Assembly: GCA_964480635.1 (NCBI GenBank)
Contig: CAYZQE010000001.1
Location: 8,812-72,811 of the forward strand
Origin: an uncultured Gammaproteobacteria bacterium
GTDB lineage: Bacteria; Pseudomonadota; Gammaproteobacteria; GCA-001735895
Length of the DNA: 64,000 bases
Reading direction: 5' to 3'
Every line of letters begins with the position of its first letter. Position 1 is the first letter of the stretch. The translations under genes were made by a program, and so were the position numbers. Of this stretch, positions 14,729-34,255 are shown in pieces. Under the pieces are notes generated by a model. It saw only the letters and a list, made by a program, of their open reading frames with translations, did no database searches and had not been told where the DNA came from.

Positions 14729-15775
14729 TTATCGTTTAGACGCCAGCTCTAATATTTTTTCTGCGATGCCATGTAAAGGCATTACAAAATCAGCATGACC
14801 TCGTTTGACGCATTCACCTGGCATTCCCCACACGACACTGGTCGCTTCATCTTGAGCAATGGTAGGTGCGCCTGCTGCTCGCATTGTACCCATCGCTTCA
14901 GAACCATCAGCGCCCATACCAGTGAGCATAATACACATTGCATTTTTGCCCACATTTTTAGCCACCGAGTTAAACATCACTTCAACTGAAGGTTTATGTC
15001 GATTGACTGGATCAGTATCGAGTAATCGACAAATAAAACGAGCGCCATCTCTAATCACTTCTAAGTGCTTATCACCTGGTGCGACATAAGCATGCCCAGG
15101 TAAAATTTGCTGCCCATTTTCAGCATGGTGCACTGTCATTGATGAATTAGCATCTAAACGCTCTGAAAATGACTGACTAAAAGCAAGTGGAATATGCTGT
15201 GTGATAACAATGCCGGGGCAATTACTGGGTAACTGGCATAACACATCTTTTAAAGCCTCGGTACCGCCTGTCGACGCACCAATAGCAATGACCATATCGG
15301 TCGTTTTAAAGCTGCTTGAACTAAAGGTTGATTGGGTAGCCGCCGTACTTTTGGGTACAGCAGCATTTAACCCCCTCACTTTTGCCATCGCCGCTGTTTT
15401 AACTTTTTGTTTTATCTCAGCGGCATAAGCCAGCATTTCTTCTTTTACGTTAACCTTTGGCTTAGACACATAATCAACAGCACCTAATTCAAGTGCCTCA
15501 AGCGTTACATCAGCACCCGCTTCCGTTAAGGTAGAAACCATAACCACTGGCATCGGACGAAGTCGCATCAAATTACGTAAAAAAGTGACGCCGTCCATTT
15601 TGGGCATTTCAACATCGAGGGTTAAAACATCGGGGTTTAATTTTTTAATTTTTTCGCGTGCTACAAGCGGGTCTTGCGCCGTACCAATGACTTCAATTTC
15701 TGGATCAGACGACAATATTTCCGTCATCAACTGACGAATTAATGCTGAATCATCGACTATTAATACCTTAACCAT
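14729..15775 (-). CDS. cheB: chemotaxis response regulator protein-glutamate methylesterase CheB (REC + methylesterase)
   Basis: An N-terminal receiver ([11 protein letters not shown]...D) is fused to a methylesterase domain with a GASTGG region. The protein is 348 aa. Confidence 0.9.
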
Positions 15776-15800
15776 AAAATTCCACTTTTAAATAAATTAT

Positions 15801-16427
15801 TTACTGAAACATATCCACATCACCCGATGTATCTGATGAACTTAGTTTAGATTTATAACTCACTTCACGCTTAACAATTGTGTCGTTATGTAAATCCTTT
15901 AATTTTTTAACTCTAACTTTTCCTGTTAGAGGGTTATATAGTACCTTTCTTGGGTTTATGCCACCCACATCTTCAGCTTTTATGTCAAAACCTTCTAAAA
16001 CGATAAATGATTTAACAAAATCAATATTACTCTGACCAATATCAGTCATCGCTTGCATAATTCGAGAACCACCAAATATTTTTATTTCTAAATTTTCCTT
16101 TTTACCACCATGTTTCAGAATATCATTAATCATATGCTCCATGGCATAGTTACCATAACGAGTTGCTAAACTATCTAGCTCAGTTTTAGAGGTCCATTTT
16201 TCTTTATTCGTCAGCGGCAGTAAAAAATGATTCATTCCCCCAATACAGTTTACTGGATCACGAATACATGCCGATACACATGATCCTAAAACAGTTGTAA
16301 TGAGCTCTTTACTTTTACTCACATAATATTCACCTGGTAAAATTTTCGCAGCATAAACATCATTTCGTTTATCCCAATAACGATTTACGTGATTAAAGCC
16401 AGGCAGTATTTTAGGCAGGTCATGCAT
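15801..16427 (-). CDS. cheD: chemoreceptor glutamine deamidase CheD
   Basis: It is 208 aa and sits between cheR and cheB as in cheR-cheD-cheB (F7/Che2-type) clusters. It has a conserved Cys (GSCVSAC). Confidence 0.8.
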   Translation of the reverse strand: MHDLPKILPGFNHVNRYWDKRNDVYAAKILPGEYYVSKSKELITTVLGSCVSACIRDPVNCIGGMNHFLLPLTNKEKWTSKTELDSLATRYGNYAMEHMINDILKHGGKKENLEIKIFGGSRIMQAMTDIGQSNIDFVKSFIVLEGFDIKAEDVGGINPRKVLYNPLTGKVRVKKLKDLHNDTIVKREVSYKSKLSSSDTSGDVDMFQ

Positions 16428-16483
16428 TATTTAGTTGAATATCACATCAAAAGCTAAGCCCAACTAGGCTCAACATTTTTCGA

Positions 16484-17311
16484 CTATGATTTTTGATAGA
16501 TTGTTTTGCCAAGTAAATCATATTGTTCTGAAATACCATGTAGTGATTCTGAATGCCCCATAAGCAAATAGCCATTTTTTTTCAATTGATTATAAAAACG
16601 ACCAACTAGACTCACTTTGGTTTCTTTATCAAAATAGATCACCACATTGCGACAAAAAATCACATCCATTTTTTCATTAATCGACCAAGGCTTTAATAAA
16701 TTCATCTGGTTAAAGCGAACCAATGATTTAACTTTATCATTCATTTTAATAAAGCCAGCATTACTGCCCGCACCTTTTTTCATGTGCGTTTTAACACGTT
16801 TAGGGTCTAAACTATCAATCCGCTCTACATTATAAACGCCCGCCTTAGCCGTTTTTACGACATTAGAGTCAATATCAGTCGCATAAATTTTTATATCCCA
16901 TTGGTCAATATCTTTAATCGAATCAACTATGGTCATGGCAATTGAATACGGCTCTTCACCGGTTGAACACGCGGCTGACCATATGCGTATGCTTTTATCG
17001 TTGTTTTTTATTTTTTCAGCAACAAGAGTCTCCGCTAAAAAGTCAAAATGATGTTCTTCTCGATAAAAAGCCGTTAAATTGGTGGTGACAGCATTTACCA
17101 ATTCAATGCTCTCAGTTGCTAAGTTATTGGCTAAAAACTGGCGGTAAGCAGCAAAGTCTGGTAATTTTAATTTTCGTACTCGACGCGACAGACGAGAGTA
17201 ATACATGGTGTACTTGCCTTCATCCGAAATAATGCCTGTTTCTGTCTTAACAACTCCCCTTAAAAAATTAAAATCATCTTGAGTGAATTTAAATTCTTTA
17301 TCTTGCTCCAT
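16484..17311 (-). CDS. cheR: chemotaxis protein methyltransferase CheR
   Basis: It is 275 aa with a SAM-methyltransferase fold signature (IWSAACSTGEEPYS). Confidence 0.85.
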   Translation of the reverse strand: MEQDKEFKFTQDDFNFLRGVVKTETGIISDEGKYTMYYSRLSRRVRKLKLPDFAAYRQFLANNLATESIELVNAVTTNLTAFYREEHHFDFLAETLVAEKIKNNDKSIRIWSAACSTGEEPYSIAMTIVDSIKDIDQWDIKIYATDIDSNVVKTAKAGVYNVERIDSLDPKRVKTHMKKGAGSNAGFIKMNDKVKSLVRFNQMNLLKPWSINEKMDVIFCRNVVIYFDKETKVSLVGRFYNQLKKNGYLLMGHSESLHGISEQYDLLGKTIYQKS

Positions 17312-17313
17312 GT

Positions 17314-17877
17314 TTAAAAGAACTCGATATCGTTTTCTAAATCTTCTTTATGGGCTTCGTTGAAAGCATGAATCGCATCCCGCACATCGACACCATCCAT
17401 CACCGCTTGAAACATTTCAACTTCTTCACGCATGCTATATTTTGACTTTATTTTTTCTTGTAGCGCTTTCCATTCATAGGGGTTAAATATTTTCGACGTG
17501 TCGCCAACTAATTCTGACAACGCTTCTACGCTAGAACTTACATGCGCTAAGCGTTGGGTTAATTTATCGTAAAATTGAAAGGCAACAATAGCGCCTTGCA
17601 TTGTTTCACTTACTTTATCAGCATTATGAGCGATTGTTTTTCGTATCACTTCAGTTTCAGGTGTTGGTGGTAAATCTTCTACTGCCATTTTAATGACATT
17701 TTCATAACCGATCATGGAGGTAAAGGCATCGGTTAAATGCAGTACTGAATCATCACTTTCCCTTAATGCTATCTCAATTTGAGCGGTTGCTAAAAACAGC
17801 ATGCGAACAGTTTCTCTCACTTGGCTCCAGTCTAAATCGGGCGCTACCGCATTTGATGGCTTACTTTCACTACTCAT
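17314..17877 (-). CDS. acidic hypothetical protein (187 aa) embedded in the chemosensory operon; C-terminus ...DIEFF
   Basis: It is tightly packed between cheR and the STAS-repeat gene. It is helical and acidic, with an 'FQFYDKLTQR' segment faintly reminiscent of the CheZ active-site 'QDLTGQ'. I make no confident family assignment. Confidence 0.45.
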   Translation of the reverse strand: MSSESKPSNAVAPDLDWSQVRETVRMLFLATAQIEIALRESDDSVLHLTDAFTSMIGYENVIKMAVEDLPPTPETEVIRKTIAHNADKVSETMQGAIVAFQFYDKLTQRLAHVSSSVEALSELVGDTSKIFNPYEWKALQEKIKSKYSMREEVEMFQAVMDGVDVRDAIHAFNEAHKEDLENDIEFF

Positions 17878-17909
17878 TTTGTATCCTCATTATTATTTTT
17901 ATATCTGGC

Positions 17910-18818
17910 TTAAAAAAACCCAGAACTTCCGTCATCTGCATCTTTAGGTGGCATATTTTCTTCGAAAAAACCAAAGCAGGCTTCTTTACTTTTAGGCGCT
18001 AAAATAGGCATTCCAATCATTTCTGCCGAATCATTAATGACCGTGCTAGTACCAATCCATTTAATATGATGCCCTGTCTGACTTAATGTTTCTTTTAGGC
18101 TATATAGCAACTGTAAGCCTGCTGTATCAATCTTTATCATTTCATCTGCATTGATTATTATTTCTTCATCGGCTGAGATCAAACTGGCGATTTGATCCTT
18201 TACTTCAGCAACTGTTTTTATCGTGAGCTCTGAACCTAAATTAATCGCATCTTCTTTTGAAATATCTAATGTTTCCATATTTGTCGCCTCTAAAACGCTG
18301 TTATCGTCGTCAGTAAAAAAACCAAAGCCATCTTCTGATGAGGTGTCCTCTACTTTAGGGCTATTTAACTCTTCTGCAAAAAAACCAAAACCATCTTCTG
18401 CTGATGTATCTTCTGCTTTAGATGTGACTGGCTCTTCTTTAAAAAAACCAAAGCCATCTTCCGACGAGCTGCCCTCTTCTTTAGAACTCTTTGATTCTTC
18501 TGAAAAGAAGCCGAAACCATCTTCTGCTGATGTATCTTCCACCTTAGAGTCATTTGACTCTTCAGTAAATAAACCAAAGCCTTCACTGCCATCGGTATTC
18601 GTTACTTCCTTAACAGCCTTATTCTTAGCTTTCTTTTTTACTGTTTTCTTTACCGAATTTTTAGCCGCTTTCTTTACTATTTTCTCTGTCTTACTGACCG
18701 CTTTTTTAGGCTTTGATGTTTTTTCAGTTGGCTCATTTTTACCTTCTGACGCGTCAGGCTCTTTTAACCATGCTAAAGGATCATAGTCTAAAACTGATTT
18801 TTTTTTCTTTTTAACCAT
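17910..18818 (-). CDS. repeat-containing STAS-domain protein: polybasic K-rich N-terminus, five 21-aa acidic repeats with a core EDGFGFF, and a C-terminal STAS (anti-sigma-antagonist-like) domain
   Basis: The repeats are read directly from the translation. The STAS signature is 'DTAGLQLLYSL'. The C-terminal tail carries two more FGFF/GFF motifs. Confidence 0.6.
   Translation of the reverse strand: MVKKKKKSVLDYDPLAWLKEPDASEGKNEPTEKTSKPKKAVSKTEKIVKKAAKNSVKKTVKKKAKNKAVKEVTNTDGSEGFGLFTEESNDSKVEDTSAEDGFGFFSEESKSSKEEGSSSEDGFGFFKEEPVTSKAEDTSAEDGFGFFAEELNSPKVEDTSSEDGFGFFTDDDNSVLEATNMETLDISKEDAINLGSELTIKTVAEVKDQIASLISADEEIIINADEMIKIDTAGLQLLYSLKETLSQTGHHIKWIGTSTVINDSAEMIGMPILAPKSKEACFGFFEENMPPKDADDGSSGFF
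18306..18593. repeat. tandem 63-bp in-frame coding repeats (about 5 copies) encoding the EDGFGFF repeat units
   Basis: The DNA shows near-identical units ttcttctgaaaagaagccgaaaccatcttctgctgatgtatcttc and ttctgcaaaaaaaccaaaaccatcttctgctgatgtatcttc. The shadow ORFs on other frames are artefacts of this repeat. Confidence 0.7.
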
Positions 18819-18820
18819 GA

Positions 18821-19312
18821 TTATTCCATTTCAGCTATCGTTTCAAACTCTTCAGAATCCAACAAACGTTCGGAATCCACTAACATGACCATATGTTCTT
18901 CTTTAGTCACCATGCCAATGACATAATCAGTATTAATCTTACTCCCCAAACTCGGAGACACTTTAATTTCATCTCGAGTCACCGACAACACGTCTGACAC
19001 GGCGTCTACAACTATACCCATCATGTGACCATCCTCTTCACCCACTGTTAATACAATAATGACCGTTGTAGGGTGATATTCAATATCATTAAGATTAAAT
19101 CTAATTCTTAAATCAACAATAGGTACAATGCTGCCACGTAAATCTAAAACACCTTTAATAAAATCAGGCGTATTATGTAATTCCCGTATTTTTTCCCAAC
19201 CTCTAATTTCCTTAACCTTCAGAATATCTATTCCATAGTCTTCTTGACCTAAGGTAAAGGTTAAAAACTCTAGCCTTTCATTTAGGTTATCGGTTTGATT
19301 TTGCTCTGACAT
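18821..19312 (-). CDS. cheW: chemotaxis coupling protein CheW
   Basis: It is 163 aa with a CheW-like domain (TFTLGQEDYGIDILKVKEIRG...GVLDLRGSIVPIVDLR). Confidence 0.9.
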   Translation of the reverse strand: MSEQNQTDNLNERLEFLTFTLGQEDYGIDILKVKEIRGWEKIRELHNTPDFIKGVLDLRGSIVPIVDLRIRFNLNDIEYHPTTVIIVLTVGEEDGHMMGIVVDAVSDVLSVTRDEIKVSPSLGSKINTDYVIGMVTKEEHMVMLVDSERLLDSEEFETIAEME

Positions 19313-19318
19313 AATTTA

Positions 19319-21883
19319 CTAACCTTTTATTTTTTGCTCAATCGACGTAAGGTTTGCCACCACTTGCGTTGAGCATACAGTTACTTTGTTATATAGGTTT
19401 TCTGCGCTATCGCAATCGCCACCTTCCTTTGCATCAATAATAGCTGAAATATAGCTGTGCATTTCTTTATGCGTTTTTTCCATATCCAGCAATTCTTGAT
19501 GCTCGCCATAAACTCTTAAGCCATCGGCATACAACCATTTACCTAAATCGCAATGTCTATGTGACACGGCCTGCTCTTGTGTTAACTCTTCTTTATCATC
19601 TAGAAATTTTCTTAGTCGTTCTTTCCATGCTAAGTGCTTCGTTTTAGCTAATTTAAAGTCTAAGGTACTTGTGGCAACTGCTTTAACAATATCTGTTTTA
19701 AAGAACTGCATTTGGCCATTCATGGTATTCGACTGCTCAGACATATGTGTACTGGCTGCTGACGCTTCTTCTGCTAAAGCGGCATTTTGCTGTGTTAAAT
19801 CATCAAGGCCGGTTAGGGCTTTACTAACTTGATCAACCCCTGTTGATTGCTCGGCACTAGCCGCTGCAATTTCACCAACAATATCGCTTACTTTTTTTAC
19901 ACCTAAAACAATGTGACCTAATGTTTCACCTGATTCATTCACTAAGTCAGAACCTGCTTTCACCTTATTAACACTATCTTGAATTAACTCTTTAATTTCT
20001 TTTGCAGCGGTTGCTGAACGCTGTGCTAAATTACGCACTTCAGTTGCTACAACTGCAAAACCACGGCCTTGATCACCGGCTCTAGCAGCTTCTACACTCG
20101 CATTAAGCGCCAACAAATTAGTTTGAAAAGCAATTTCGTCAATGACGCTAATAATTTCTGCTATTTTACTACTCGATTGGTTAATCTCTTCCATCGCATT
20201 AATAGCATCAGCAACCACATGACCACCCTTATCTGCAGTGTCCCCTGCTTCTGCTGCTAATTGGTTTGCTTGCGCGGCATTACCCGCGTTTTGTTTTACT
20301 GTCGAAGTTATTTCTTCCATGCTTGCCGCCACTTCTTCTAGTGCAGTTGCTTGCTGCTCTGTACGGTTTGATAAATTATTGTTACCCGAAGCAATTTCTT
20401 GCGAGGAATTATTAATCTGATTCGATGAATCCCTAATGCCATTCACGATATCTCTTAATTTAACAATCGTCTTATTCACATTATCTTTAACTTCACCGAA
20501 CACACCATCATAAGCTCGATCAATCGTTTGCCCTAGATTACCACCAGCAACGCCTGACATAACTTGATTAACATCTGCAAAGGTTGCTTCTAACACATCC
20601 AACATTTCATTTAAGTTAACTGATAAATTTTTGAAAAAACCAACCTGGCTAGTCGCATTCAGTCGCGAACTTAAATTACCCGATTGAGCAGCAACCACTA
20701 GATGCTCAATCTCTTTTTCAAAATTACGCTCAATTGTTAAATCACGCCACTCCAAGATAGTGCCAACGCGCTGGCCATCTTGAATCACGGGACTCGAATT
20801 AATACTTAATACTCGACGACCTAATGACTTTTCTTCTGTATGACTATTTTTTAATCCATCTAATAATCGACGTTGTTTTACCGCATCATTATAAAAGATG
20901 TCTAAAGGTGTGCCCAAAAGTTTTTCGGCATTAAAGCCTGTTACTTGCTGAGAAATATCGTCAGTCGCATCTTTAAACATCGACTTAATCGTTTCATTTA
21001 AATAGATAATATTATAATTTTGATCAACTAACATAACGTTCGATCCCGCATTATCTAACGCTGATTGAATACGCTGGCCAGCTGTTGCTTTTTCACGCGC
21101 ATCCATCACATCAAAGCCTAAACGCACTTGCAATGTAAACAACCGTCTTAATAAACTACCCATATCATCTTTACGAGAAATATCAGTCCAGTTAAAATAT
21201 TCTCCTCGACTTATCTCTGATATTTTATCGTATAGATAGTCCATTGGTTTACTGATTTTTTTTACTAAAAAAATACCTAAGACCAAAAAGATAATCGCTA
21301 AACCTAACATTAGCTGAGCGACAAATATCACCTCGACCCCCCTCATCAATAGGATACTCATGAGTAACATGACGAGAGAGAAAAAACCGACTCCAATATA
21401 TTGAAGACCAACAGATGATAACGACTGAAACTTTTCTATTAACGCACCAAAGCCTGTTTTTGTTAAAGTTTCTTGGCCTGAATTAACCTGTTGATAAAGC
21501 TTTTCTGCATCGCTTATCTGTTGGTCTGTAGGTCGTGTTCTTACTGACATATACTCAACAATACTGCCATCCTGATAAATAGGCGACACATTGGCATTAA
21601 CCCAATAATAATCACCATTTTTAGCCCTATTTTTAATGGGTGCTGTCCATGGGATTTTCTTATTAAGATCATCCCATAAAGATTGAAATGCTTCTGATGG
21701 CATGTCTGGGTGTCGTACTAAATTATGATTCTTACCCATCAATTCGTCATAACTAAACCCACTAATTTCCATGAATTCTTTATTACAATAGGTAATAACC
21801 CCTTTTAAATTTGTTTTTGAAACCAAAATAGACCCTTCACGCATTTTGACTTCGTTATTCGTTACTGGCTCATTAACTTTCAT
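19319..21883 (-). CDS. methyl-accepting chemotaxis protein with an Aer-type N-terminal PAS (FAD) domain, TM hairpin, HAMP, second PAS, MA domain and a C-terminal CZB (chemoreceptor zinc-binding) domain
   Basis: The N-terminus ([33 protein letters not shown]...[16 protein letters not shown]) closely matches the E. coli Aer PAS. The MA tip is [30 protein letters not shown]. The C-terminus ([11 protein letters not shown]...H...H) is a CZB motif. Confidence 0.85.
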
Positions 21884-21908: not shown

Positions 21909-24641
21909 TTAGAATTCATCCCAATCATCAGATGATTGTAAATCTATTCCTTTTTTGGCTACTGAATTTTTTGTTTCTATTTCGGGCTGCTTCTTTTCTG
22001 ACGGCTTCTTTTCTGGCTCTTCATCAAAAATCATTGGCTCATTAAAATGTACCCTTTTATTGTCTACATTTCCGCTGTCATCAATTTTAAAGAAGCTGAC
22101 ATCTTGTTGCATAATTGAAGACCGTTCTGACAAATTAATACTTGCTGCCGTCACTTCTTCCGCTAAAGTCGCATTTTGTTGAGTGAGCGTATCCATTGAT
22201 GTGATGGCAATATTGACTTCTTGAATGCCTTTTGATTGCTCTTCACTGGCTGCCGCGATTTCAGAAATAATGTCTACCACCTTTCTCACGCCAGTTTCAA
22301 TGTCAGCTAGCGATTGCCCTGAGTCATTGACAAGTTTTGACCCTGCTTCCACCTTAATAACACTATCGTTTATTAACTCTTTAATTTCTTTTGCTGCGGT
22401 TGCAGAACGTTGCGCTAAATTTCGAACTTCTGTTGCAACGACGGCAAAACCCCTGCCTTGATCACCCGCTCTTGCAGCTTCTACACTAGCATTCAGTGCT
22501 AATAAATTTGTTTGGAAAGCAATTTCATCAATCACACCGATTATGTCGGCAATCTTTGTGCTTGATTCATTAATCTGTGCCATCGCATCAATGGCATCAT
22601 GAATAACACTGCCACCCTCTTGAGCTATATGTTGGGCTTCTTTTGCTAAACCATTTGCCATTATTGAATTAGACGTATTTTCAGACACAGTTGCTGTTAA
22701 TTCAGCAATACTCGCGGCGGTTTCTTCTAAGGCTGCGGCTTGCTGCTCAGAGCGCATCGATAGATTTCCGTTACCTTCCGCGATCTCATTAGAAATTCCA
22801 TCAATCACACTGGCGCTGGTAATAATTTTTTTGGTTATTTCACGTAAATTGATGACGGTCTTAGCGGCTGCTTGCTCAACTTTGCCAAAAATGCCGACAT
22901 TGACTTCATTAACATCCTTTGTTAAATCACCTTTTGCGAGTGTTTGCATGGATTCGTTTAATGAATTTAAGGCGTTTTCGACAATGACTAATAGCTCATT
23001 AGTATTTGAGCTTAAGGTTGCAAAGAAACCTGTTTTATTAGACAAATCAATTTTAGTCGCTAAGTCACCCCCCATAGCAAGAGATACAACATTAGCAATC
23101 TCTGACTCCATAGAAATCTCTAAGGTTTTATCTTGAATTTCATAAACCTTACCAAGTAACTCTCCATCATCTGCAAAAATTTTATTTGAAGTAACCAATA
23201 AGGTATTACCCTGATATAACACTTTTTGTTTATCACATTCTTCATGCTCACTCAGAAAAACATCATGTGTTAACACACTACTTGCTGCGCCATTTTCTAG
23301 TGACAATTGATCAACTTTGTCATACAACTCTTGAGCCATGTTATTAACATAAACCACTTTATTTTTATTATCTATAACCAGAACATTCCCAGAAATGCTA
23401 TCTAATGCTGTTTTTACTCGTGCATTTTCACGTGAAATTAAACGCTCAGTATCAATACTGTCTTTCAATTCCTTTTGCATATGACCCAACGACTTGAAGA
23501 GTTGCCCAAATTCATCAGTCGATTTAACTATAATATTGTTATTTAAATTTCCTTTAGCAATTTCTTTGGCCAAACTAACCGCCCAATTTAATGAATGTGT
23601 AATCAAACGACTTAAGAACCAAGCGATCAAAAGCGCCATGACTATCACTACAACTAACACTATATAAAATTGTTTTGATTGAGCAGTGTAAATATTGTCA
23701 ACGTGTTCTTGGGCTAGCGATATGTTTTCTTTTTGACGATAAATTAATGCGTCTATTTTTTCTTTTATGCTCAGTAATAAGGGTGTGACTTGCGTTTTTA
23801 CAATGTAAGCGTCTTGACGCCATTTATCACTATTATGAAGCTCAATTAACTGACCAAAATTATTCATGAATTGTGTTTTTAAAGCTATAAATTGCTCTAA
23901 AGAGTCTGATTGATCTAAAGTTAATAAGTCATCATCATTTTGTAGTACCAACAACCTTTCGACCATAGCATCAACATTGCTGCTATATAACTTAATATTA
24001 TCAATAGCCGCGGGGGCTTTGAAGGCTAAAAATAAACGTAATTCAGTCATCACACTGGCCCAGCTATACCTTAATTTATGAATTAAAGTTATCACCTCTT
24101 TTCGCTCTTCAATGTATTCTTCTTCGTCTTCAGAGCTTAGCATTTGCCCTAATAACTGTAACAGCTCCCTATTTAAAGGGTTAATTTTTTCTTGGGCAAA
24201 GCCCACTGCCAAAATATTGAGATTATTGTCTTTCGATAAGGCCAACAACCTGGGTTTAATTTTTTGAATGGCCTCAACGTCAACGGCTATTTTATTGATT
24301 AATTCGACAGATTGTTGATCAGCCGCTATTGCCTTTTCTTTTTTTAGTGACTTCATGGTGATCGTGATACGGTTTAAACCCACCACAAAACTTTGTTCTT
24401 TATCCGCATCACCGGTCAGTAAATAAATACCCATCGCTCCAAAAACAGCTTCTATTTGGGCATTTAAAAGGCCTGCTTTTTCGACAGCCACTTGATTTTC
24501 AGTAGACACTGTTTGAAAGGTTTCATACACCAAATTTAAACTATTATTAGAACTGACGGCTTTTAGCACAAAAATACTAACGACCACCATAAAGCCTAAA
24601 GAAATTTTATATCGGATTGATAAATTATTAAAAAATTGCAT
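21909..24641 (-). CDS. methyl-accepting chemotaxis protein (910 aa): periplasmic sensor domain, HAMP, PAS, MA domain, and a C-terminal DDWDEF pentapeptide-like tail
   Basis: Two TM helices flank an approximately 300-aa periplasmic region. The MA tip is conserved. The protein ends in ...SSDDWDEF. Confidence 0.85.
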   Translation of the reverse strand: MQFFNNLSIRYKISLGFMVVVSIFVLKAVSSNNSLNLVYETFQTVSTENQVAVEKAGLLNAQIEAVFGAMGIYLLTGDADKEQSFVVGLNRITITMKSLKKEKAIAADQQSVELINKIAVDVEAIQKIKPRLLALSKDNNLNILAVGFAQEKINPLNRELLQLLGQMLSSEDEEEYIEERKEVITLIHKLRYSWASVMTELRLFLAFKAPAAIDNIKLYSSNVDAMVERLLVLQNDDDLLTLDQSDSLEQFIALKTQFMNNFGQLIELHNSDKWRQDAYIVKTQVTPLLLSIKEKIDALIYRQKENISLAQEHVDNIYTAQSKQFYIVLVVVIVMALLIAWFLSRLITHSLNWAVSLAKEIAKGNLNNNIIVKSTDEFGQLFKSLGHMQKELKDSIDTERLISRENARVKTALDSISGNVLVIDNKNKVVYVNNMAQELYDKVDQLSLENGAASSVLTHDVFLSEHEECDKQKVLYQGNTLLVTSNKIFADDGELLGKVYEIQDKTLEISMESEIANVVSLAMGGDLATKIDLSNKTGFFATLSSNTNELLVIVENALNSLNESMQTLAKGDLTKDVNEVNVGIFGKVEQAAAKTVINLREITKKIITSASVIDGISNEIAEGNGNLSMRSEQQAAALEETAASIAELTATVSENTSNSIMANGLAKEAQHIAQEGGSVIHDAIDAMAQINESSTKIADIIGVIDEIAFQTNLLALNASVEAARAGDQGRGFAVVATEVRNLAQRSATAAKEIKELINDSVIKVEAGSKLVNDSGQSLADIETGVRKVVDIISEIAAASEEQSKGIQEVNIAITSMDTLTQQNATLAEEVTAASINLSERSSIMQQDVSFFKIDDSGNVDNKRVHFNEPMIFDEEPEKKPSEKKQPEIETKNSVAKKGIDLQSSDDWDEF

Positions 24642-24674
24642 GAATTAAATCTCTCTCATCCTACTTATTATGAC

Positions 24675-27389
24675 TTAAAATTCTTCCCATTCATCAGCCG
24701 CAGGAGCAGATGGCTCTGGTATCGCTACTGGTGACGAAGTGGGCTTTGATTCACTAGAGGGTGCCTCTTTTTTCAGAGCAGAAGGTGCTTTTAAACTAGT
24801 CTGCGCATCAGATTCAGTTAATTTAAAGTACGTCATTTGCTCTAACATATCATTGGCTCCCTGTGTCATATTGACACTGGCTGCCGATGTTTCTTCTGCT
24901 AACGCTGCATTTTGTTGCGTCATCTCATCCATACTGGCTACCGCAGTATTCGCTTGTTCAATACCCGCTGTTTGCTCTTCACTGGCTGCTGCAATTTCGC
25001 CGACAATATCGCCTACTTTTTTAATGCCTTGAACAATTTCATCCAATGTTTCACCTGATTCATTCACCAAAGAAGAACCAATTTCTACTTTTTTAACACT
25101 ATCTTGAATGAGTTCTTTAATCTCTTTTGCAGCAGTTGCTGAACGTTGCGCTAAATTTCTAACCTCGGTTGCCACAACAGCAAAGCCTCTACCTTGCTCA
25201 CCAGCGCGGGCAGCCTCAACACTCGCATTAAGGGCTAATAGATTAGTTTGGAAGGCAATTTCATCAATCACTCCAATAATTTCTGCAATTTTGTTACTTG
25301 AACTATTGATTTCAGTCATCGCCTTAATCGCGCCTTCTACAACATCACCACCTTTATTGGCAACTTCTCTTGCCGATGCTGCTAAAATATTAGCTTGTTG
25401 TGCGTTATCTGAATTTTGCTTTACGATTGAGGTCAATTCTTCCATGCTGGCAGCGGTTTCTTCAAGAGCACTGGCTTGCTGATCTGTACGACCTGAAAGA
25501 CTATTATTACCCGAGGCTATTTCTGTTGATGCATTGGTCAAATCTGACGTAGAACTGCGTATTTCTCCAATCACTCGGGCAAATTGAACAATGGTTTCAT
25601 TCACATGATCGCTGACCTCGCCAAATGTTCCGCCATAATTATTTTCTATGTGTTTGGTTAAGTCACCGTGAGACAGTGCTGACATGACATTTTTAATGTC
25701 ATCTAATGTATTAGAAATTTCGGCAACCATGTCATTAATACCTTCACTTAAATTAAGGAAGAAACCTGATTTGCCTTGAGTTGCAATGCGTTGATCTAAA
25801 TCACCAGATTTAGCGGCGACTACTATTTGTTCGATTTCTTTTTCGACATTAACTTCTATTGTTCTATCTTCCCATTCCACTACGGTACCAATACGCTCAC
25901 CGTCATCACTCACAACAGGGTTCGCAATAAATCGCATATTATGACCGCCAACAAGAAAATCAGCTTCATGACGCGACTCTAACATTTTAACCAAGCCTCT
26001 TTGGTAACTTGACTCTTTATTAAAAATATCCATATTTGAGCCAACCAAGCTATCAACTGAAAATGCGGGTAAATCTTTAACAATACCTTCTTCTGCATTT
26101 CTAAACATAGAAATAGCAGCATCGTTCATATAAATAATGTCATTTTTTTGATTCACGAGCATGACATTTGCGCTGACATTATCGAGAGCCTGTCTAATAC
26201 GTGAATTCTCTCGACTAATGACCGCATCACTTTCAATGCGCTCTTTAAGGCCTGTTTGCATCGTCTTTAACGAGCCCAACATATTACCCAATTCATCCGT
26301 ACTATTGACGGTGATAGCCCCTGTTAAATCACCCTTAGCTATTTTTTGTACCATATTTAATGCACTAGCAACCGACTCTCTAATGCCTTTTTGGACGATA
26401 TAACCTAAAAACAATGTAATCAGAATTGAAAAAATAGACACTAATGCCGCTGAAATCAATGTCGAGCTTGCTGTATCGCCCATTTCTTTTGATTTATTAA
26501 TTAATGATGTCGTTAAGCTATCTGCAACTTTATTTAATAAATTGATTTTTCCAGTTTGCTGCTGAACCCATTCATCTGGCTCTATGCCAAAAGCACCGTA
26601 ATCTGATGCTTCAAAGGCCTTAGCCCTCATTGCGGCCGTTTTATCAACATATTCACCAACCATTGTGGCGATATAAAGTTCTTTTTGTTGAGCGCTTGCC
26701 AACGAAAGGTAAACGCTTTCATAAACATTTTGCCCGTTGACCGCATTATTAAAATCTGAAAAATTAGCACCTACAAATTGATCGTTTTTAAACACTTGGG
26801 CAAGCACTTTACGCTCTGTAATGGCTAAACTTTTTATGTGTAAAAAATTAGAATAAGATGCCGAAATAATCGCGGCTTCTTTACTGGGGCTCATGGCGGG
26901 TAATAAGCCAATCACATCAAGTAAACTTGAGCTCAGTTGCTTATAAAATGCTGCCGCTTTATTGCGTTTTAATTTTTTATTGTTAATAGCGCTGCGCTTA
27001 TCGTCAATAGTTGCTAACATTTCTTGAGAGCTAGCAACTTGTGCGCTAAAGACATCCGTTACTGCATTATTATCTATGTCATTTAAGGCACCTTTTAGAT
27101 TACTAATGGCTTTATTAGTGTTGCCTCGAGCATTCTCTATTTCTTCGCCAAACTTTTTACCTCTGGCTCTTTGGTACTTTTCGGTAATATTTTTTTCAAT
27201 AACCAATACATCCAATAGCTTATTCGTTGCAATAGCCATTTCAATTAAATTGCTCATCGCCGCAGCTTCTGACGCTGTGTTTTGTGCATTTAGAAACTGT
27301 TTACCCGAAAAAAATACTAAGCTAACTAATGGAATGATTAACATCAATCCTAGTTTTTTACCCAATTTCATATTATTAATTAAATTCAC
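24675..27389 (-). CDS. methyl-accepting chemotaxis protein (904 aa): large periplasmic sensor (NIT-like?), HAMP, PAS, MA domain, and a C-terminal ADEWEEF tail
   Basis: Its architecture resembles the preceding MCP. It ends in ...PAADEWEEF, which resembles the GWEEF CheR-tethering pentapeptide of Pseudomonas McpB/Aer2. Confidence 0.85.
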   Translation of the reverse strand: MNLINNMKLGKKLGLMLIIPLVSLVFFSGKQFLNAQNTASEAAAMSNLIEMAIATNKLLDVLVIEKNITEKYQRARGKKFGEEIENARGNTNKAISNLKGALNDIDNNAVTDVFSAQVASSQEMLATIDDKRSAINNKKLKRNKAAAFYKQLSSSLLDVIGLLPAMSPSKEAAIISASYSNFLHIKSLAITERKVLAQVFKNDQFVGANFSDFNNAVNGQNVYESVYLSLASAQQKELYIATMVGEYVDKTAAMRAKAFEASDYGAFGIEPDEWVQQQTGKINLLNKVADSLTTSLINKSKEMGDTASSTLISAALVSIFSILITLFLGYIVQKGIRESVASALNMVQKIAKGDLTGAITVNSTDELGNMLGSLKTMQTGLKERIESDAVISRENSRIRQALDNVSANVMLVNQKNDIIYMNDAAISMFRNAEEGIVKDLPAFSVDSLVGSNMDIFNKESSYQRGLVKMLESRHEADFLVGGHNMRFIANPVVSDDGERIGTVVEWEDRTIEVNVEKEIEQIVVAAKSGDLDQRIATQGKSGFFLNLSEGINDMVAEISNTLDDIKNVMSALSHGDLTKHIENNYGGTFGEVSDHVNETIVQFARVIGEIRSSTSDLTNASTEIASGNNSLSGRTDQQASALEETAASMEELTSIVKQNSDNAQQANILAASAREVANKGGDVVEGAIKAMTEINSSSNKIAEIIGVIDEIAFQTNLLALNASVEAARAGEQGRGFAVVATEVRNLAQRSATAAKEIKELIQDSVKKVEIGSSLVNESGETLDEIVQGIKKVGDIVGEIAAASEEQTAGIEQANTAVASMDEMTQQNAALAEETSAASVNMTQGANDMLEQMTYFKLTESDAQTSLKAPSALKKEAPSSESKPTSSPVAIPEPSAPAADEWEEF

Positions 27390-27449: not shown

Positions 27450-27959
27450 CTATTCTTCTTCTATCTCAACAACTTCATCATATAAATCAGGTGATTTTAA
27501 AAATTCAACGGCATCAAACAGCATGACCATTTGTCCATCTGAATCAGCTAGACCCTTTATAAAGTCAACATCAATACGGTCTGAAAACTCTGGAGTTTTT
27601 CTTATTTTACTTTTTTCAGCATTCAGAACATCTGAAACAGCATCAACAACAATACCTGCAATACGCTCTTTTTCTTGAACTTCGCCTCGCAAAATAATTA
27701 AGACTGTTGTTGCTTCATAAGTCACATGCTCACAATGGCTTTTCATTCTCATATCAACGATGGGGACTGCTGTACCACGCAAATTAAGAACGCCTTTGAT
27801 ATATTTTGGTGTATTAGGAACTCGGGCTACCGACTCCCATCCTCTTATTTCTTGAACACTCAGTAATTTAACACCATATATTGACTCACCAACTGTATAG
27901 GTTAGATATTGTTCAAAGTCTTCATTTTGAGATAAATCCTGGGTTGCTTCTTCACTCAT
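27450..27959 (-). CDS. cheW: chemotaxis coupling protein CheW
   Basis: It is 169 aa with a CheW-like domain. Confidence 0.9.
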   Translation of the reverse strand: MSEEATQDLSQNEDFEQYLTYTVGESIYGVKLLSVQEIRGWESVARVPNTPKYIKGVLNLRGTAVPIVDMRMKSHCEHVTYEATTVLIILRGEVQEKERIAGIVVDAVSDVLNAEKSKIRKTPEFSDRIDVDFIKGLADSDGQMVMLFDAVEFLKSPDLYDEVVEIEEE

Positions 27960-27961
27960 TG

Positions 27962-30076
27962 TTATGCCGCCACATCAGTTTTATCGCTCTTCTTTTCAAG
28001 CTTTTTGTTCAGAGTTAAAATCCCGGGCATATCGATAATAAGCGCGACAGAACCATCACCTAAAATAGTGGCCCCTGAAAAACCTTCTATTTTTTTGTAA
28101 TTACTTTCTAATGATTTGATCACCACTTGCTGCTGCCCTAGTAATTCATCAACAAACAAACCTACGTGTTTGTTTTCAACTTCAACAACTACCAATAGCC
28201 CATCTTTTAGATCAACAGGTTTTTCTAGTTCAACACCAAAAATGTCATGCAGCTTTATAATGGGGACGTATTCTTCTCGTAGCTTGAATGTTTCTCCCTG
28301 CCCCCCAACCATATTGACCATATCAGGTTGTATTTGGATTGACTCTACAATTGAAATAATAGGGATAATGTAATTTTCATTACCAACAGAGACTGTTTGT
28401 CCATCGACAATTGCTAGGGTTAATGGCAAACGAATTCGCATTGTACTGCCTTTTCCTAACGCTGAATCAATCTCGATTGAGCCCCCAAGCTCTAAGATAT
28501 TTCGACGAACCACATCCATGCCAACACCACGGCCAGACACATCACTAACAACCGCAGCTGTTGAGAAGCCCGGCAAGAAAATCAATTCAAATATTTGACG
28601 ATCAGTTAAAATATCACCTTCGATAATAAGCCCCTTTTCGACTCCTTTTTTATATAAAACATCCTTATCCATACCTTTACCATCATCGATAATTTCGATA
28701 ACAATATTACCGCCTTGGTGATAGGCATTTAAATTTATTGTTCCTAACTCTTCTTTACCTGCTGCCACACGATCTTCTGGCATTTCAATACCATGATCTA
28801 AACTGTTACGCACAAGATGTACGAGAGGGTCACCAATTTTTTCAATAACTGTCTTGTCTACTTCAGTTGCCTCACCCGAAAGAATCAATTCTATCTTCTT
28901 GCCCATTTTTCCTGATAAATCACGAACCAAACGTGGAAAACGTGAAAAGGTAAAACTAATCGGCATCATTCGAACTTGCATCACGCTTTCTTGCAGCTCA
29001 CGTGAATTACGCTCTAACTGCATCAAACCATCGCGTAAACGGTCTATTTCAGCGACATCAATTGATCCTCTTTCTTCAATGTTTTCACCAATTAAACCTA
29101 GCATTGATTGAGTAATCACTAACTCACCCACCATATTGATCAAAGCATCAATTTTATCGGTATCTACTCTTATAGAGGCATTAGCTTGAGCTGCTGGTTT
29201 TTTACTTCCTCTTCGGTCATTCTTACGGCGATCACCACCTTTGGCCTTTTCACTGTCTGCACTATCACCATCTCTTCTTTGAGGAATGGGTAATTGTGAC
29301 TTTTCTGCCGGCTTCACCCCATCTGCTTGTGCATTGCCATCTTGTAATGCAATAATTTCTAAATCACAAAGGTCTTCAACCCAAGCAAAAATCTCACTGA
29401 GCACATCTTTATCTGCATCCGTTATTATTTTCAATTCCCAACTGATATAACTTTGTTCAGCATCGAGCATTTCAAAGGGCGGTATCGCATTTAAATCTGT
29501 TGTCAGCTCTACTTCACCTAGTGATGAAAGCTCTCTTATTAATGGTAATGGATCATTACCCGTATGAAAAATATCGCTGTTTGGCTTAAACTTTATCAAC
29601 CAACCTTGGCCAGGCGAGTCACCTGCCGTTACGGCTTTAGTAGGAGCGTTTGTTTCTTCTTTAGCCGCTAAATTTTCGCCAGCAGCTTCATTACCCAGTT
29701 CTTTTTCGAGCATTGCTTTATGCTCTTTAACACGTGCTTCGTCTGGGTCATCGCCTTCTTGCGCGGCTTCTAGCATTTCTCTTAAACAGTCGGTTGACTT
29801 TAATAGAAGGTCTGAATTTGCAACAGTAACATCACGCTTACCATCTCGCATTTCATCAAGAAGCGTTTCCATGACATGGGTAAACGAAGCGACTTCCATA
29901 AAGCCGAAAGTACCCGAACCACCCTTTATAGAATGAGCGGCTCTAAAAACACTATTAATAACCTCAGAATCAGCTTCACCTGGCTCTAAATCCATTAATC
30001 CGGTTTCCATAATTTCGATGCCTTCGAAACTTTCTTCAAAAAACACCTGATGAAACTGAGCCATATCTATCGACAT
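27962..30076 (-). CDS. cheA: chemotaxis histidine kinase CheA (P1-P5)
   Basis: It has a P1 HPt (FRAAHSIKGGSGTFGF), P3 dimerisation (IRVDTDKIDALINMVGELV), a P4 HATPase with G1/G2 boxes, and a P5 CheW-like domain. Confidence 0.9.
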   Translation of the reverse strand: MSIDMAQFHQVFFEESFEGIEIMETGLMDLEPGEADSEVINSVFRAAHSIKGGSGTFGFMEVASFTHVMETLLDEMRDGKRDVTVANSDLLLKSTDCLREMLEAAQEGDDPDEARVKEHKAMLEKELGNEAAGENLAAKEETNAPTKAVTAGDSPGQGWLIKFKPNSDIFHTGNDPLPLIRELSSLGEVELTTDLNAIPPFEMLDAEQSYISWELKIITDADKDVLSEIFAWVEDLCDLEIIALQDGNAQADGVKPAEKSQLPIPQRRDGDSADSEKAKGGDRRKNDRRGSKKPAAQANASIRVDTDKIDALINMVGELVITQSMLGLIGENIEERGSIDVAEIDRLRDGLMQLERNSRELQESVMQVRMMPISFTFSRFPRLVRDLSGKMGKKIELILSGEATEVDKTVIEKIGDPLVHLVRNSLDHGIEMPEDRVAAGKEELGTINLNAYHQGGNIVIEIIDDGKGMDKDVLYKKGVEKGLIIEGDILTDRQIFELIFLPGFSTAAVVSDVSGRGVGMDVVRRNILELGGSIEIDSALGKGSTMRIRLPLTLAIVDGQTVSVGNENYIIPIISIVESIQIQPDMVNMVGGQGETFKLREEYVPIIKLHDIFGVELEKPVDLKDGLLVVVEVENKHVGLFVDELLGQQQVVIKSLESNYKKIEGFSGATILGDGSVALIIDMPGILTLNKKLEKKSDKTDVAA

Positions 30077-31506: not shown

Positions 31507-31812
31507 TTAAAGGATATTCAAAATCTCACAAGCCACTTCAAATTTAATAGGCACTGATCCTTCAATAGGAATAGAGCGAATAACAGATGCTCTTGCTTCC
31601 ATAGGCGGCGTAATCGAATTAACAGGCGTCAACTTCACCAATAATTCTGACTTAGGCTCAAACTCATCTTCTAACTCTAATAAAAAACCTTTCGCGCTTA
31701 AATTTTTAACACCACCTTCACCTGATCGACTATCTGCCTCACAGCAATACGTCATGACACATTCAATGGCCATCCTTTGGAAGTCGCGTTTTTCATCATA
31801 ATTATGATCCAT
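31507..31812 (-). CDS. single-domain PilZ protein (c-di-GMP binding)
   Basis: It has the RxxxR motif (RDFQRM) and the D/NxSxxG motif (NLSAKGF). It is 101 aa. Confidence 0.6.
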   Translation of the reverse strand: MDHNYDEKRDFQRMAIECVMTYCCEADSRSGEGGVKNLSAKGFLLELEDEFEPKSELLVKLTPVNSITPPMEARASVIRSIPIEGSVPIKFEVACEILNIL

Positions 31813-31827
31813 AAAATTTCCCCTCAG

Positions 31828-32142
31828 TTAAATTTTAAATAATTTACCAAAGTTGGCAACGTCTAATATTTTTTTAACATCTACGGATGTATTAACAATA
31901 TCAACTTTAGAGCTTTCCCCACCTGCATGTTCTCTCAGTAATAAAAGCATACCTAAAGCGGAGCTATCTAAATATTCAGTCGCCGACAGATCGACAACAT
32001 AATGCACACCATTCCCATCTGTTTCATCATATGATGTTCTAAATTCATCATATAACTGAAAGTCAAACTTACCTGATACTGATATTGTTACTTTTTTACC
32101 GCCATCTGCGATCGTACTATTTATTGCCATCAATGACTCCAT
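31828..32142 (-). CDS. STAS-domain protein (SpoIIAA-like anti-sigma factor antagonist)
   Basis: It is 104 aa and carries the conserved phosphorylatable-Ser region 'VDLSATEYLDSSALGMLL'. Confidence 0.7.
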   Translation of the reverse strand: MESLMAINSTIADGGKKVTISVSGKFDFQLYDEFRTSYDETDGNGVHYVVDLSATEYLDSSALGMLLLLREHAGGESSKVDIVNTSVDVKKILDVANFGKLFKI

Positions 32143-32200
32143 TACAATTTAATTTTTAATTTTTAATGCTTAATGTATAGCAGCTATTTCAGTTACTGCC

Positions 32201-32245
32201 ATAATTTTTAAACTTTTTAAACTTTTTAAACTTTTTAAACTTTAA
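32201..32245. repeat. 9-bp tandem repeat (taaactttt, about 4.5 copies) in the MCP-like/STAS intergenic region
   Basis: It is read directly from the sequence at 32201-32245, immediately 3' of the MCP-like stop and upstream of the STAS gene. Confidence 0.7.
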
Positions 32246-32249
32246 TTCC

Positions 32250-33458
32250 TTAAAATAATTCTATTTCACCTTCTTCCATCGAACTCTGTCCAACTGCCTT
32301 GTTAATAGGCGTAGACCATTCTTGCTTTAATACTTCTATGCTAGATTTAAATTCATTTAAAACTAATAAGGTATCTAGATCATTTACATTTGTATTTTCT
32401 TGTAACACATTCATTTGAGACTTTAAGTTTTGTACGAGATCATGCAAACGATTCACATGTTCGCCGCTATATTGAACAACTTGAGAAACGACATCTTCAA
32501 ATTGTAATGACAGTATAGCCACGCCGACTGATTTATTAATATCATCTGTTACTGCTGAAATTTTCTTTAGTTCCTCAGCTACATGTTCATCGTATCGACC
32601 AATATCATCTAACATTGAATCTACTCTATCTTTTGAAGATATTGTCTCTGTCATATCTCGAGACGCCATAGCCGTTACTAACGCTTTAGCCTCAGAAATA
32701 CCTGCTTTAGATTTAACAATAACAGTGCGTATCTTTTCACTAAAGTCATTTGAGTTTTTAGACAGATTACGTACTTCATCAGCAACAACAGCAAAGCCTC
32801 GACCCGCCTCACCCGCTCTAGCCGCTTCAATCGCTGCATTTAATGCCAATAAATTAGTTTGTTGGGCAATTTTACTCACATCATCAAGCAGCTTAAACGC
32901 CTGATCCATTTCTTTAGCAATATCATCAATGGTGTAAACCATTTTCATACTGCTTTGGCTGGTGGATAACAGCATTTGAATAAAGTGCTGCAATAGCTGA
33001 TTGGTCTCATCAACAAAACCACGCATATTAAAACTACCATTATCTTCATCTGGCTCAACCATGCCTAGAACTAGAGCGCCTTGAAGCTGGCTAAACTGAT
33101 TTAAATCTGTAAAGCTCCCGCCTAACTTACCCGTGGCATCAAGAACAACCGTATTAATTTGAGTGAGTGAATCTTTAATCTCATTTGTTTGACCTTCAAC
33201 TAAGCTGTTTAAACCCAACAATAAATCAAATAGTTCTTTAATAACGACACTATGAACTTGATCTGAAGATTCAATATCACTTAGTTTCTCTTCTTCAGTA
33301 TTAAGACCCAATAGAACACCTATAAATGCCACTAGGAGCAAACCATCTAAAAGTTCAAACGAACTTAGTAAACGAATAATAATAATGCTAAATACAGTCA
33401 CTGCACTGATTGCCAATAAACGATGTTTTAGCACAAATTGTTTTGTTAATAATTTCAT
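32250..33458 (-). CDS. membrane-anchored MCP-like signalling protein (two N-terminal TM helices with essentially no periplasmic domain, plus an MA domain)
   Basis: It has the conserved MA hairpin tip [37 protein letters not shown]. It is 402 aa and ends ...EEGEIELF. Confidence 0.75.
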
Positions 33459-34228: not shown

Positions 34229-34255
34229 GTGAATACTACACCATTTTATTTAAAA

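Follow-up and report, generated by a model that had tools for sequence, protein, structure and literature searches.

The window analysed here is a stretch of 64,000 nucleotides with a GC content of ~38% from an uncultured Gammaproteobacteria bacterium (assembly GCA_964480635.1, contig CAYZQE010000001.1, positions 8,812 to 72,811), and it contains on the reverse strand, at positions 19319 to 21883, a chemoreceptor gene situated within a cluster of chemosensory genes. A preliminary description, drawn up from the sequence without database searches, had read this gene as a chimera of an Aer-type PAS sensor with a second PAS domain, an MA signalling domain and a C-terminal CZB domain. The open reading frame was confirmed at exactly this position, with an ATG start, 854 amino acids followed by a stop codon and an AAGGA ribosome-binding site located ~9 nucleotides 5' of the ATG, and a protein identical to its product (P0001) is present in the public collection. 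Gaps of 25 and 6 nucleotides separate the gene from its flanking genes. As judged from the alignments presented below, the receptor is composed of an Aer input module (residues 7-257), an Aer2 core (PAS, di-HAMP and a 36H signalling domain) and a CZB domain, arranged in series, and the gene encodes a real membrane-anchored chemoreceptor. Its parts are the following, all on the (-) strand:

19319..21883 (-): whole receptor gene; supported by the list of open reading frames, the ribosome-binding site and the identical protein P0001
21479..21871 (-): residues 5-135, Aer-type PAS, predicted to bind flavin adenine dinucleotide (FAD); ungapped alignment to 8DIK/31cj
21407..21478 (-): residues 136-159, F1 linker; inside the alignment to full-length Aer (7-257)
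21260..21406 (-): residues 160-208, membrane hairpin with the turn 'RGVE'; Kyte-Doolittle scan, aligns to the Aer hairpin
21098..21259 (-): residues 209-262, HAMP1 of Aer type; aligns to the 31cj HAMP up to residue 257 and to the HAMP detected by Pfam in the paralogues
20711..21091 (-): residues 265-391, Aer2-type PAS (PAS2); 3VOL E 4e-43, 4HI4 E 2e-22
20444..20710 (-): residues 392-480, di-HAMP equivalent to Aer2 HAMP4/5; 3VOL alignment and Pfam HAMP_2 at 414-473
19679..20443 (-): residues 481-735, MA signalling domain of class 36H; MCPsignal 189 bits, Tsr alignment and methylation motif scan
19331..19672 (-): residues 738-851, CZB domain; Pfam CZB, NCBIfam DgcZ model and AlphaFold2 (AF2) model

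In the Pfam scan, the receptor is matched by PAS_9, PAS_3 and PAS at residues 19-114 (E 1e-17 to 3e-14), by PAS_4 and PAS_8 at residues 270-386 (E 2e-8 and 5e-8, respectively), by HAMP_2 at residues 414-473 (E 7.5e-8), by MCPsignal at residues 541-696 (189 bits) and by CZB at residues 750-816, the last with 46.8 bits as compared to a gathering score of 29.4 and over profile positions 1-64 of 64. Chance is ruled out as the source of the domain matches, given E-values of 1e-12 to 1e-56.

Modules of the receptor

Over its N-terminal residues 7-139 the receptor can be aligned with E. coli Aer (PDB 8DIK and 31cj) without a gap and in the same residue numbering (E ~1e-38), with 46% identity over residues 7-136, and using a longer query, residues 7-257 align to full-length Aer (31cj, E 3e-44) with coverage of the PAS domain, the F1 linker, the hairpin and the HAMP domain. 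Kyte-Doolittle hydropathy reveals two membrane segments at ~160-208 joined by the four-residue turn 'RGVE', and hence no periplasmic domain. In Aer, FAD is contacted by H53, R57, M69, W70, N85 and R115, and the S28G substitution is stabilising (8DIK paper, PMC9668731). The receptor contains H53, R57, L69 (M69 in Aer), W70, N85 and R115 at these positions with a native G28, and also H58 and D60. In an alignment of relatives made from the 120 closest database clusters (90% identity), G28, H53, R57, H58, N85 and R115 are shared by every one of the 120, W70 by 119 and D60 by 117. By these residues the FAD pocket is intact, and FAD binding is predicted.

The central part, residues ~270-478, corresponds to the PAS-heme domain and HAMP4/5 of Pseudomonas aeruginosa Aer2 (PaAer2), with E 4e-43 for 3VOL over ~207 residues in an almost gapless alignment and E 2e-22 for 4HI4. 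PaAer2 ligates a b-type heme via H234 (2026 review, PMC13401364) and stabilises O2 through a Trp residue (PMC9855816). Counting along the 3VOL alignment places Y331 (20891-20893) of the receptor at the H234 position ('DIFY' vs 'DVFH'), and this Trp (W283) and D285-x-T287 are retained as W379 and D381-x-T383. The PaAer2 numbering of W283, L264 and D-x-T is consistent with this count. W379, D381 and T383 are conserved in 118-119 of the 120 relatives. The MA domain that follows aligns to residues 261-515 of E. coli Tsr over 254 residues with zero indels and is therefore of class 36H, and the NCBIfam Tar model pairs 298 receptor residues with 298 model positions. The alignment of the MA domain to the Thermotoga receptor 2CH7, which is of class 44H, shows a length mismatch of 216 vs 244 residues. 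Methylation-consensus sites were found by motif scan at residues 512, 519 and 701.

At the C-terminal end, the predicted zinc ligands of the CZB domain are H750 (19634-19636), C778 (19550-19552), H805 (19469-19471) and H809 (19457-19459), and the receptor motif CDLGKWLY fits CX(L/F)GXW(Y/L). Such a 3His/1Cys site together with the CX(L/F)GXW(Y/L) motif constitutes the criteria for CZB identification (Perkins et al. 2021, PMC8262984), and none of the 87 relatives that bear a CZB domain deviates from the four ligands, the reactive Cys among them, or from the motif. Residues 735-850 are matched by the NCBIfam DgcZ model (E 2e-7), and a phmmer search of PDB sequences with a single CZB sequence returned nothing relevant. 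The AF2 model, calculated for residues 700-854 from a 20-sequence alignment, contains a four-helix bundle after a disordered linker, with predicted local distance difference test (pLDDT) values of 86-97 in this block, and its rank 1 match in Foldseek is the DgcZ CZB domain 3T9O_B (probability 0.99, 114 of 120 residues aligned). For the HAMP and MA domains, which are obligate dimers, the packing seen in a full-length monomer model would be unreliable. By the above sequence criteria the C-terminal domain is a bona fide CZB, for which zinc binding is predicted.

Concerning the domains, the preliminary description has thus largely held. The N-terminal PAS does resemble Aer residue for residue, the two motifs quoted there (27 and 11 protein letters) are present in the receptor, the FAD-binding residues are in place, the HMM scan supports CZB at the C-terminus, and the hairpin, the HAMP, the second PAS and the MA domain are all borne out by Pfam matches, hydropathy and the Aer and Aer2 alignments. 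What it had entered as 'another PAS' indeed exists, although its Aer2-type identity and the change of the heme-ligand His to Tyr went unnoticed.

Prevalence of the layout and divergence of the second PAS domain

The Aer signature (RHPDMP at ~residue 57) and the CZB motif are found together in 84 of the 120 best clusters, and a further 32 have the Aer PAS and no CZB. The layout occurs in length classes of ~855 (the receptor described here), ~900, ~1005 and ~1175 amino acids. In the ~900-residue members, CZB is followed by a linker and a terminal EWEEF-type xWxxF pentapeptide, the ~1005-residue members possess a second Aer2-type PAS (P0068, L083), and members of ~730-747 residues, 59-63% identical to the target, are devoid of CZB; relatives of these kinds include P0066, P0083-P0090 and P0133-P0139. 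In a census at 50% identity, based on an exhaustive search of 1.84 billion representatives, the top 150 were classified as follows:

90 of the top 150 representatives: Aer and Aer2 modules, no CZB
37 of the top 150 representatives: Aer2 module only
13 of the top 150 representatives: Aer and Aer2 modules with CZB
8 of the top 150 representatives: Aer2 module with CZB, no Aer module
2 of the top 150 representatives: Aer module only

From these counts it follows that the Aer/Aer2 hybrid is a large family, in which CZB is an evolutionarily labile addition to a subset. On the same comparisons, CZB and the pentapeptide tether are gained and lost independently inside one receptor family, and the receptor is to be regarded as a member of a common, uncharacterised family rather than a unique chimera. 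The combination of an Aer PAS with CZB had been called unusual in the preliminary description, a view that the survey does not sustain. Nor is CZB restricted to soluble receptors, with which it had been associated there, since membrane-bound CZB receptors with PAS/Cache sensors have already been catalogued, with 'PAS/Cache' given as a generic label only (PMC8262984), and so have ~72 receptors with the order MA-CZB-pentapeptide (PMC7390727). These published CZB surveys do not single out Aer-type or Aer2-type modules, and in the literature searched, including a 2026 aerotaxis review (PMC13401364), neither a link of Aer2/F7 receptors with CZB nor Aer/Aer2 hybrids as such were encountered. The relatives come from metagenome-assembled genomes of Gammaproteobacteria (Chromatiaceae/Chromatiales, Methylococcaceae and Thiolapillus). 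Among the 80 listed loci from named genomes, mostly matches to the generic MA pattern DEIAFQTN, there is no CZB-bearing receptor, and this set is uninformative on the taxonomic spread.

The heme-ligand position of PAS2 is occupied by His in 109 of the 120 relatives, by Tyr in 8, namely the target and its nearest relatives (P0001-P0008), and by Leu in 3. The same holds on a wider scale, with 217 His and 18 Tyr in 275 retrieved proteins that have an Aer2-like PAS, Tyr being the commonest replacement of His. The divergence of the Tyr clade was measured as the number of positions with at least 90% conservation in the His group that differ in this clade, and is given here together with the identity to the nearest His-bearing relatives:

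Aer PAS: 2 of 56 conserved positions changed, 71-74% identity
Aer2-like PAS: 9 of 38 conserved positions changed, 41-44% identity
HAMP4/5: 1 of 13 conserved positions changed, 60-66% identity
MA domain: 1 of 133 conserved positions changed, 75-78% identity

PAS2 alone has diverged in this clade. Among its altered positions are those equivalent to P237, H239 and R286, and within the clade of the target the PAS2 domains are 47-73% identical as compared to 73-79% for whole proteins. Tyr at the heme-ligand site arose in at least five separate groups, and the Tyr-type domains evolve faster. The PAS2 domains of the Tyr group have a mean identity of 0.37 among themselves and of 0.36 to His-type domains, as compared to 0.54 among those of the His group. 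That they form a distinct subfamily with a new ligand was ruled out, as they have no common signature beyond the Tyr itself. The pattern suggests a relaxed constraint after loss of a His-ligated heme. Since the fold and the coupling junction of PAS2 are kept, this domain would still serve as a relay, and in the receptor its most likely role is to relay the signal with no His-ligated heme of its own, which leaves the protein two inputs.

The chemosensory cluster and its putative F7 class

The genes surrounding the receptor follow the (-) strand order CheA, CheW, a receptor with a NIT sensor, a second receptor, the target, CheW, STAS, a 187-residue protein, CheR, CheD and CheB, and can be listed by position as follows:

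14729..19312 (-): CheW, repeat-rich STAS protein, conserved 187-residue protein, CheR, CheD and CheB, downstream of the receptor; Pfam and NCBIfam
21909..27389 (-): two tandem paralogous receptors of 910 and 904 amino acids (NIT sensor); Pfam
27450..30076 (-): CheA (704 amino acids, 27962-30076) and CheW, upstream; Pfam and NCBIfam
31507..34618 (-): detached part with CheY (34256-34618), a ParA-like ATPase, a McpA-like receptor of 402 amino acids, STAS and PilZ; Pfam

CheA matches the NCBIfam model of E. coli-type CheA with 607 bits nearly end to end. The detached block from CheY to PilZ is split from the CheA part of the cluster by ispG (30275-31474, +), and beyond this block a GGDEF protein (34788-35783) and a FliK-like protein (35987-37639) are encoded. 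The same kind of cluster, with the order CheY-CheA-CheW-receptor-CheW-(ParA)-STAS-(~190-residue gene), is found at three further loci (L082, L083 and L084), whose receptors are 47-61% identical to the target. The downstream order CheW-STAS-187-residue slot-CheR-CheD-CheB recurs in L083 and L084, and L082 is without the ~190-residue gene. L084, with a receptor 61% identical, also has the split layout including PilZ and ispG, whereas L082 and L083 are contiguous; hence the split is ancestral to the lineage of the target.

The two paralogues are 44% and 53% identical to the target over residues 183/197-729 and have the HAMP-PAS-diHAMP-MA core in common with it, so that the three tandem receptors are distinguished solely by their N-terminal sensors and C-terminal tails. 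One paralogue carries a periplasmic NIT (nitrate/nitrite) sensor, and the N-terminal ~340 residues of the other have no Pfam match. Their heme-ligand sites are occupied by Asn and Leu, i.e. all three F7 receptors of this organism have an Aer2-type PAS that lacks this His. The paralogues end in DDWDEF and DEWEEF, corresponding to the xWxxF pentapeptide, whereas the target ends in ...EQKIKG and has no pentapeptide. A C-terminal pentapeptide x-[HFYW]-x2-[HFYW] (pattern of PMC7184735) is present in 96 of 130 Aer2-like F7 members, and a genome with an Aer2-like receptor that lacks it always has a further one that carries it (PMC7184735). The cluster fits this co-occurrence rule, as the tether-less target lies beside two tethered paralogues. 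This setting of tandem paralogues in an F7 cluster is what the preliminary description had missed; its account of all domains, the FAD pocket and the 3His/1Cys site stands, and the supposed rarity and the restriction of CZB to soluble receptors do not.

The gene order agrees with the one that Ortega et al. 2020 (PMC7184735) describe for 'stage 1' F7 clusters, and the cluster is accordingly designated stage-1-like F7, a putative class drawn from gene order and the E. coli-like scores of CheA, CheW and CheR and not from phylogeny. Membership of the receptor among the Aer2-like F7 receptors is supported by the homology of its PAS and di-HAMP, the Trp, the D-x-T junction, the 36H class and the cluster context, and the two features of this group that it lacks are the heme-ligand His and the pentapeptide.

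The STAS protein (17910-18818, -, 302 amino acids) adjoins the CheW gene next to the receptor and has a Lys-rich N-terminus, followed at 18313-18581 by ~4.3 tandem copies of a 63-bp (21-residue) repeat, each with an acidic stretch and 'EDGFGFF'. The STAS domain is followed by 'CFGFFEE' and the protein ends in '...SSGFF'. 'GFGFF' fits the pattern x-[HFYW]-x2-[HFYW] used for CheR/CheB tethers by Ortega et al. (PMC7184735), and this repeat-rich protein could be a multivalent tether in an F7 cluster whose target receptor is without a pentapeptide. STAS genes in the same slot of L082-L084 are 133-257 residues long, hence the extension is variable. An antisense open reading frame (18223-18786, +, 187 amino acids) was rejected as a gene, because it lies wholly inside the STAS repeats and its repetitive 'KKPKPSS' translation is a by-product of them. 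The 187-residue protein of the cluster (17314-17877, -) has no credible Pfam or NCBIfam match, with one sub-threshold Pfam hit and zero NCBIfam hits, and its slot is filled by Pfam-less genes in L083 (192 amino acids) and L084 (183 amino acids); it may be a conserved F7 component.

Proposed function and comparison with known systems

The receptor probably represents, in this window, a widespread family of 'Aer2-like' 36H receptors of ancestral-type (stage-1-like) F7 clusters, built of three modules with PAS2 as a relay, and we hold this reading with reasonable confidence. Its most likely function, deduced from the domains and their conserved ligands, is that of a sensor of flavin redox state and of zinc or oxidants which controls the CheA of its own cluster. 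In such a scheme, the flavin would report the redox state of the respiratory chain and the cytoplasm by changing the packing of the PAS domain on HAMP1 as in Aer (PMC13232288). Since PAS2, rather than the kinase-control bundle, comes next after HAMP1, the signal would then have to travel in line, as proposed for Aer2 (PMC13401364), through PAS2, the D-x-T junction and the di-HAMP to the 36H bundle, which would control the cluster's own CheA and CheW. A CZB dimer would be placed at the C-terminal end of the bundle via a flexible linker of ~15 residues, next to the methylation-helix cap, and would probably bias the bundle in response to changes in zinc occupancy or to oxidation of the Cys that binds zinc (cf. 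PMC8262984). Adaptation would be expected to proceed via CheR, CheD and CheB.

Several points weigh against this interpretation. The cofactor, metal and signalling assignments are, for every member of the family, predictions from sequence. The CZB family profile reaches the DgcZ CZB domain 3T9O only weakly (E 0.17, PDB sequences), and the Foldseek match of the AF2 model to 3T9O_B is weak as well (E 0.12), with other four-helix bundles scoring close behind. Lateral signalling of the PAS domain onto HAMP1 alone would be an extrapolation from Aer, where the PAS domain touches HAMP AS-2 and the methylation-helix cap (PMC13232288); the contact with the cap cannot be the same in the target because PAS2 and the di-HAMP intervene. 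The F7 class was assigned by gene order and E. coli-like scores, the Ser-phosphatase gene of the published stage-1 layout was not found in the cluster, and the cluster is split by ispG. Lastly, Tyr can ligate heme in other proteins, which makes the loss of heme from PAS2 a probable one and no more.

This last point bears on the view that PAS2 of the target clade is still an active sensor, binding heme via Tyr331 or another ligand, and that three inputs are kept. The D-x-T junction is still there, as is W379, which corresponds to the Trp that stabilises O2 in Aer2, and Tyr is the commonest substitute for His (18 of 275) in several lineages, which could reflect a selected alternative ligand. However, the alteration of 9 of 38 otherwise conserved positions (P237, H239 and R286 equivalents among them), the absence of any signature peculiar to Tyr-type domains as seen in the mean identities given above, the low identity of PAS2 within the clade relative to whole proteins, and the Asn and Leu at the heme-ligand site of both tandem paralogues make an active PAS2 rather improbable. 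Similarly, CZB might not be sensory and could instead be a zinc-stabilised module for dimerisation, localisation or organisation of the array, or a docking site replacing the missing pentapeptide. It does take the place of the xWxxF tail of the two paralogues, the relatives of 730-747 residues (59-63% identical) lack it and hence it is dispensable for core function, and a 2026 paper reports that polar localisation of H. pylori TlpD needs an intact C-terminus (PMC13001251). Nevertheless, the ~900-residue class has both CZB and a terminal pentapeptide (cf. PMC7390727), hence CZB is no simple substitute for a tether, and the Cys and the motif, invariant in 87 of 87, are features used for sensing in TlpD and DgcZ (PMC8262984), so a purely structural role is regarded as unlikely.

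The receptor could also be what the preliminary description made of it, a rare chimera for energy taxis that directs flagellar swimming by combining Aer-like aerotaxis with oxidant or metal taxis through CZB. Its Aer-type input module is complete with an intact FAD pocket, CZB receptors mediate taxis to hypochlorous acid (HOCl), oxidants and O2 in Helicobacter and Salmonella (PMC8262984; bioRxiv 10.64898/2026.07.03.735341), and the CheY gene (34256-34618) and the FliK-like gene are nearby. However, the layout is not rare, and the cluster is stage-1-like F7, a type that is separate from the F6 motor system (PMC7184735, PMC9855816). In Vibrio cholerae, P. aeruginosa and Shewanella oneidensis, F7 clusters form separate tall arrays with links to stress and RpoS, and the F6 system runs the motor (PMC7184735, PMC9855816); in S. 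oneidensis, swimming remained unchanged upon overproduction of Aer2so (PMC9855816). As the studied stage-1 and stage-2 F7 systems are not linked to the motor and instead to stress and RpoS, energy taxis is not to be assumed, which makes that label an unsafe one, and we give flagellar steering little credence.

Returning to the redox and zinc/oxidant sensor of an F7 array as the preferred reading, a wider and more tentative proposal, which we hold to be possible rather than probable, concerns the family as a whole. The family could be the principal receptor of ancestral F7 arrays with three inputs, namely flavin for respiratory redox, heme for O2, and CZB for zinc and oxidants or extracellular redox potential. 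His is kept in the PAS2 of most members, and hence those proteins would be three-input sensors (FAD, heme/O2 and Zn). If true, oxygen and redox stress would turn out to be what ancestral F7/Che2-type systems, whose input has long been unknown, respond to, and the clade of the window, in which the heme ligand is gone and PAS2 is degrading, would represent a two-input form that arose naturally. In a July 2026 preprint, CZB is proposed to read redox-dependent zinc availability and to mediate aerotaxis in Salmonella (bioRxiv 10.64898/2026.07.03.735341), and the repeated fusion of CZB to two O2/redox sensors would provide independent comparative support for that proposal. The sensor class of each module has been well studied, and an F7 array receptor of the same overall topology has already been imaged, so the system is not new in kind. 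Apparently not yet described in the literature searched is the fact that many F7 'Aer2-like' receptors are Aer/Aer2 hybrids, a subset of them with CZB. This suggests what the ancestral F7 systems (Che2, cluster III, Che1) sense, ties CZB to oxygen and redox sensing through domain fusion, and provides a natural setting in which to study how lateral (Aer-type) and in-line (Aer2-type) PAS signalling work together within one receptor. Thanks to the clade with His replaced by Tyr, receptors that have the heme input can readily be compared with others that lack it.

Among known systems, E. coli Aer has in common with the receptor the PAS, the F1 linker, the hairpin without a periplasmic domain and the HAMP, and both are of class 36H. 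In Aer, however, the HAMP is directly joined to the kinase-control bundle, whereas an Aer2-type PAS and a di-HAMP (265-480) are placed between them in the receptor; Aer is without adaptive methylation (PMC13232288), whereas the receptor has three consensus sites with the genes for CheR, CheD and CheB adjacent; and Aer is devoid of CZB. Because of the inserted module and the methylation sites, the receptor appears Aer-like at its input end, yet is not an Aer-type receptor overall. In H. pylori TlpD, S. enterica McpA and the membrane-bound CZB subgroup (PMC8262984), CZB lies C-terminal to the signalling domain, with the 3His/1Cys site and the motif in place, as in the receptor, which differs from TlpD and McpA in that these are soluble and without a flavin or heme PAS.

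PaAer2/McpB (3VOL, 4HI4) and the Aer2 receptors of Vibrio and Shewanella have the core of PAS, HAMP4/5 and 36H domain, the Trp and the D-x-T in common with the receptor, as well as the gene context CheA-CheW-receptor-CheR-CheD-CheB. Aer2 receptors are soluble, with N-terminal HAMPs or additional heme-PAS domains, the H234 heme ligand and a C-terminal pentapeptide, whereas the target is membrane-anchored via its Aer module, contains Y331 and ends in CZB. The closest described counterpart is MEALZ_2872 of Methylomicrobium alcaliphilum, a 36H receptor with the order PAS, two short membrane segments, HAMP, PAS, HAMP, HAMP and MCPsignal, encoded by the fourth gene of an 11-gene F7 cluster and forming tall membrane-associated arrays (PMC7184735). 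In that study its N-terminal PAS was not called Aer- or FAD-type, zinc or CZB was not mentioned, and the model stops at residue 738 (PMC7184735). The published MEALZ_2872 fragment is 57% identical to the ~900-residue class, which has the Aer motif, CZB and the pentapeptide, and MEALZ_2872 may by this likeness contain a CZB domain as well; a homolog search with the fragment as query returned short fragments only. The topology of MEALZ_2872 is the same as that of the target, and L082 has the same gene order around a Methylococcaceae-type member of the family. They differ in that MEALZ_2872 has the heme-ligand His ('DSFH') where the target has Tyr, and in that the target lacks the pentapeptide and is accompanied by two extra paralogues.

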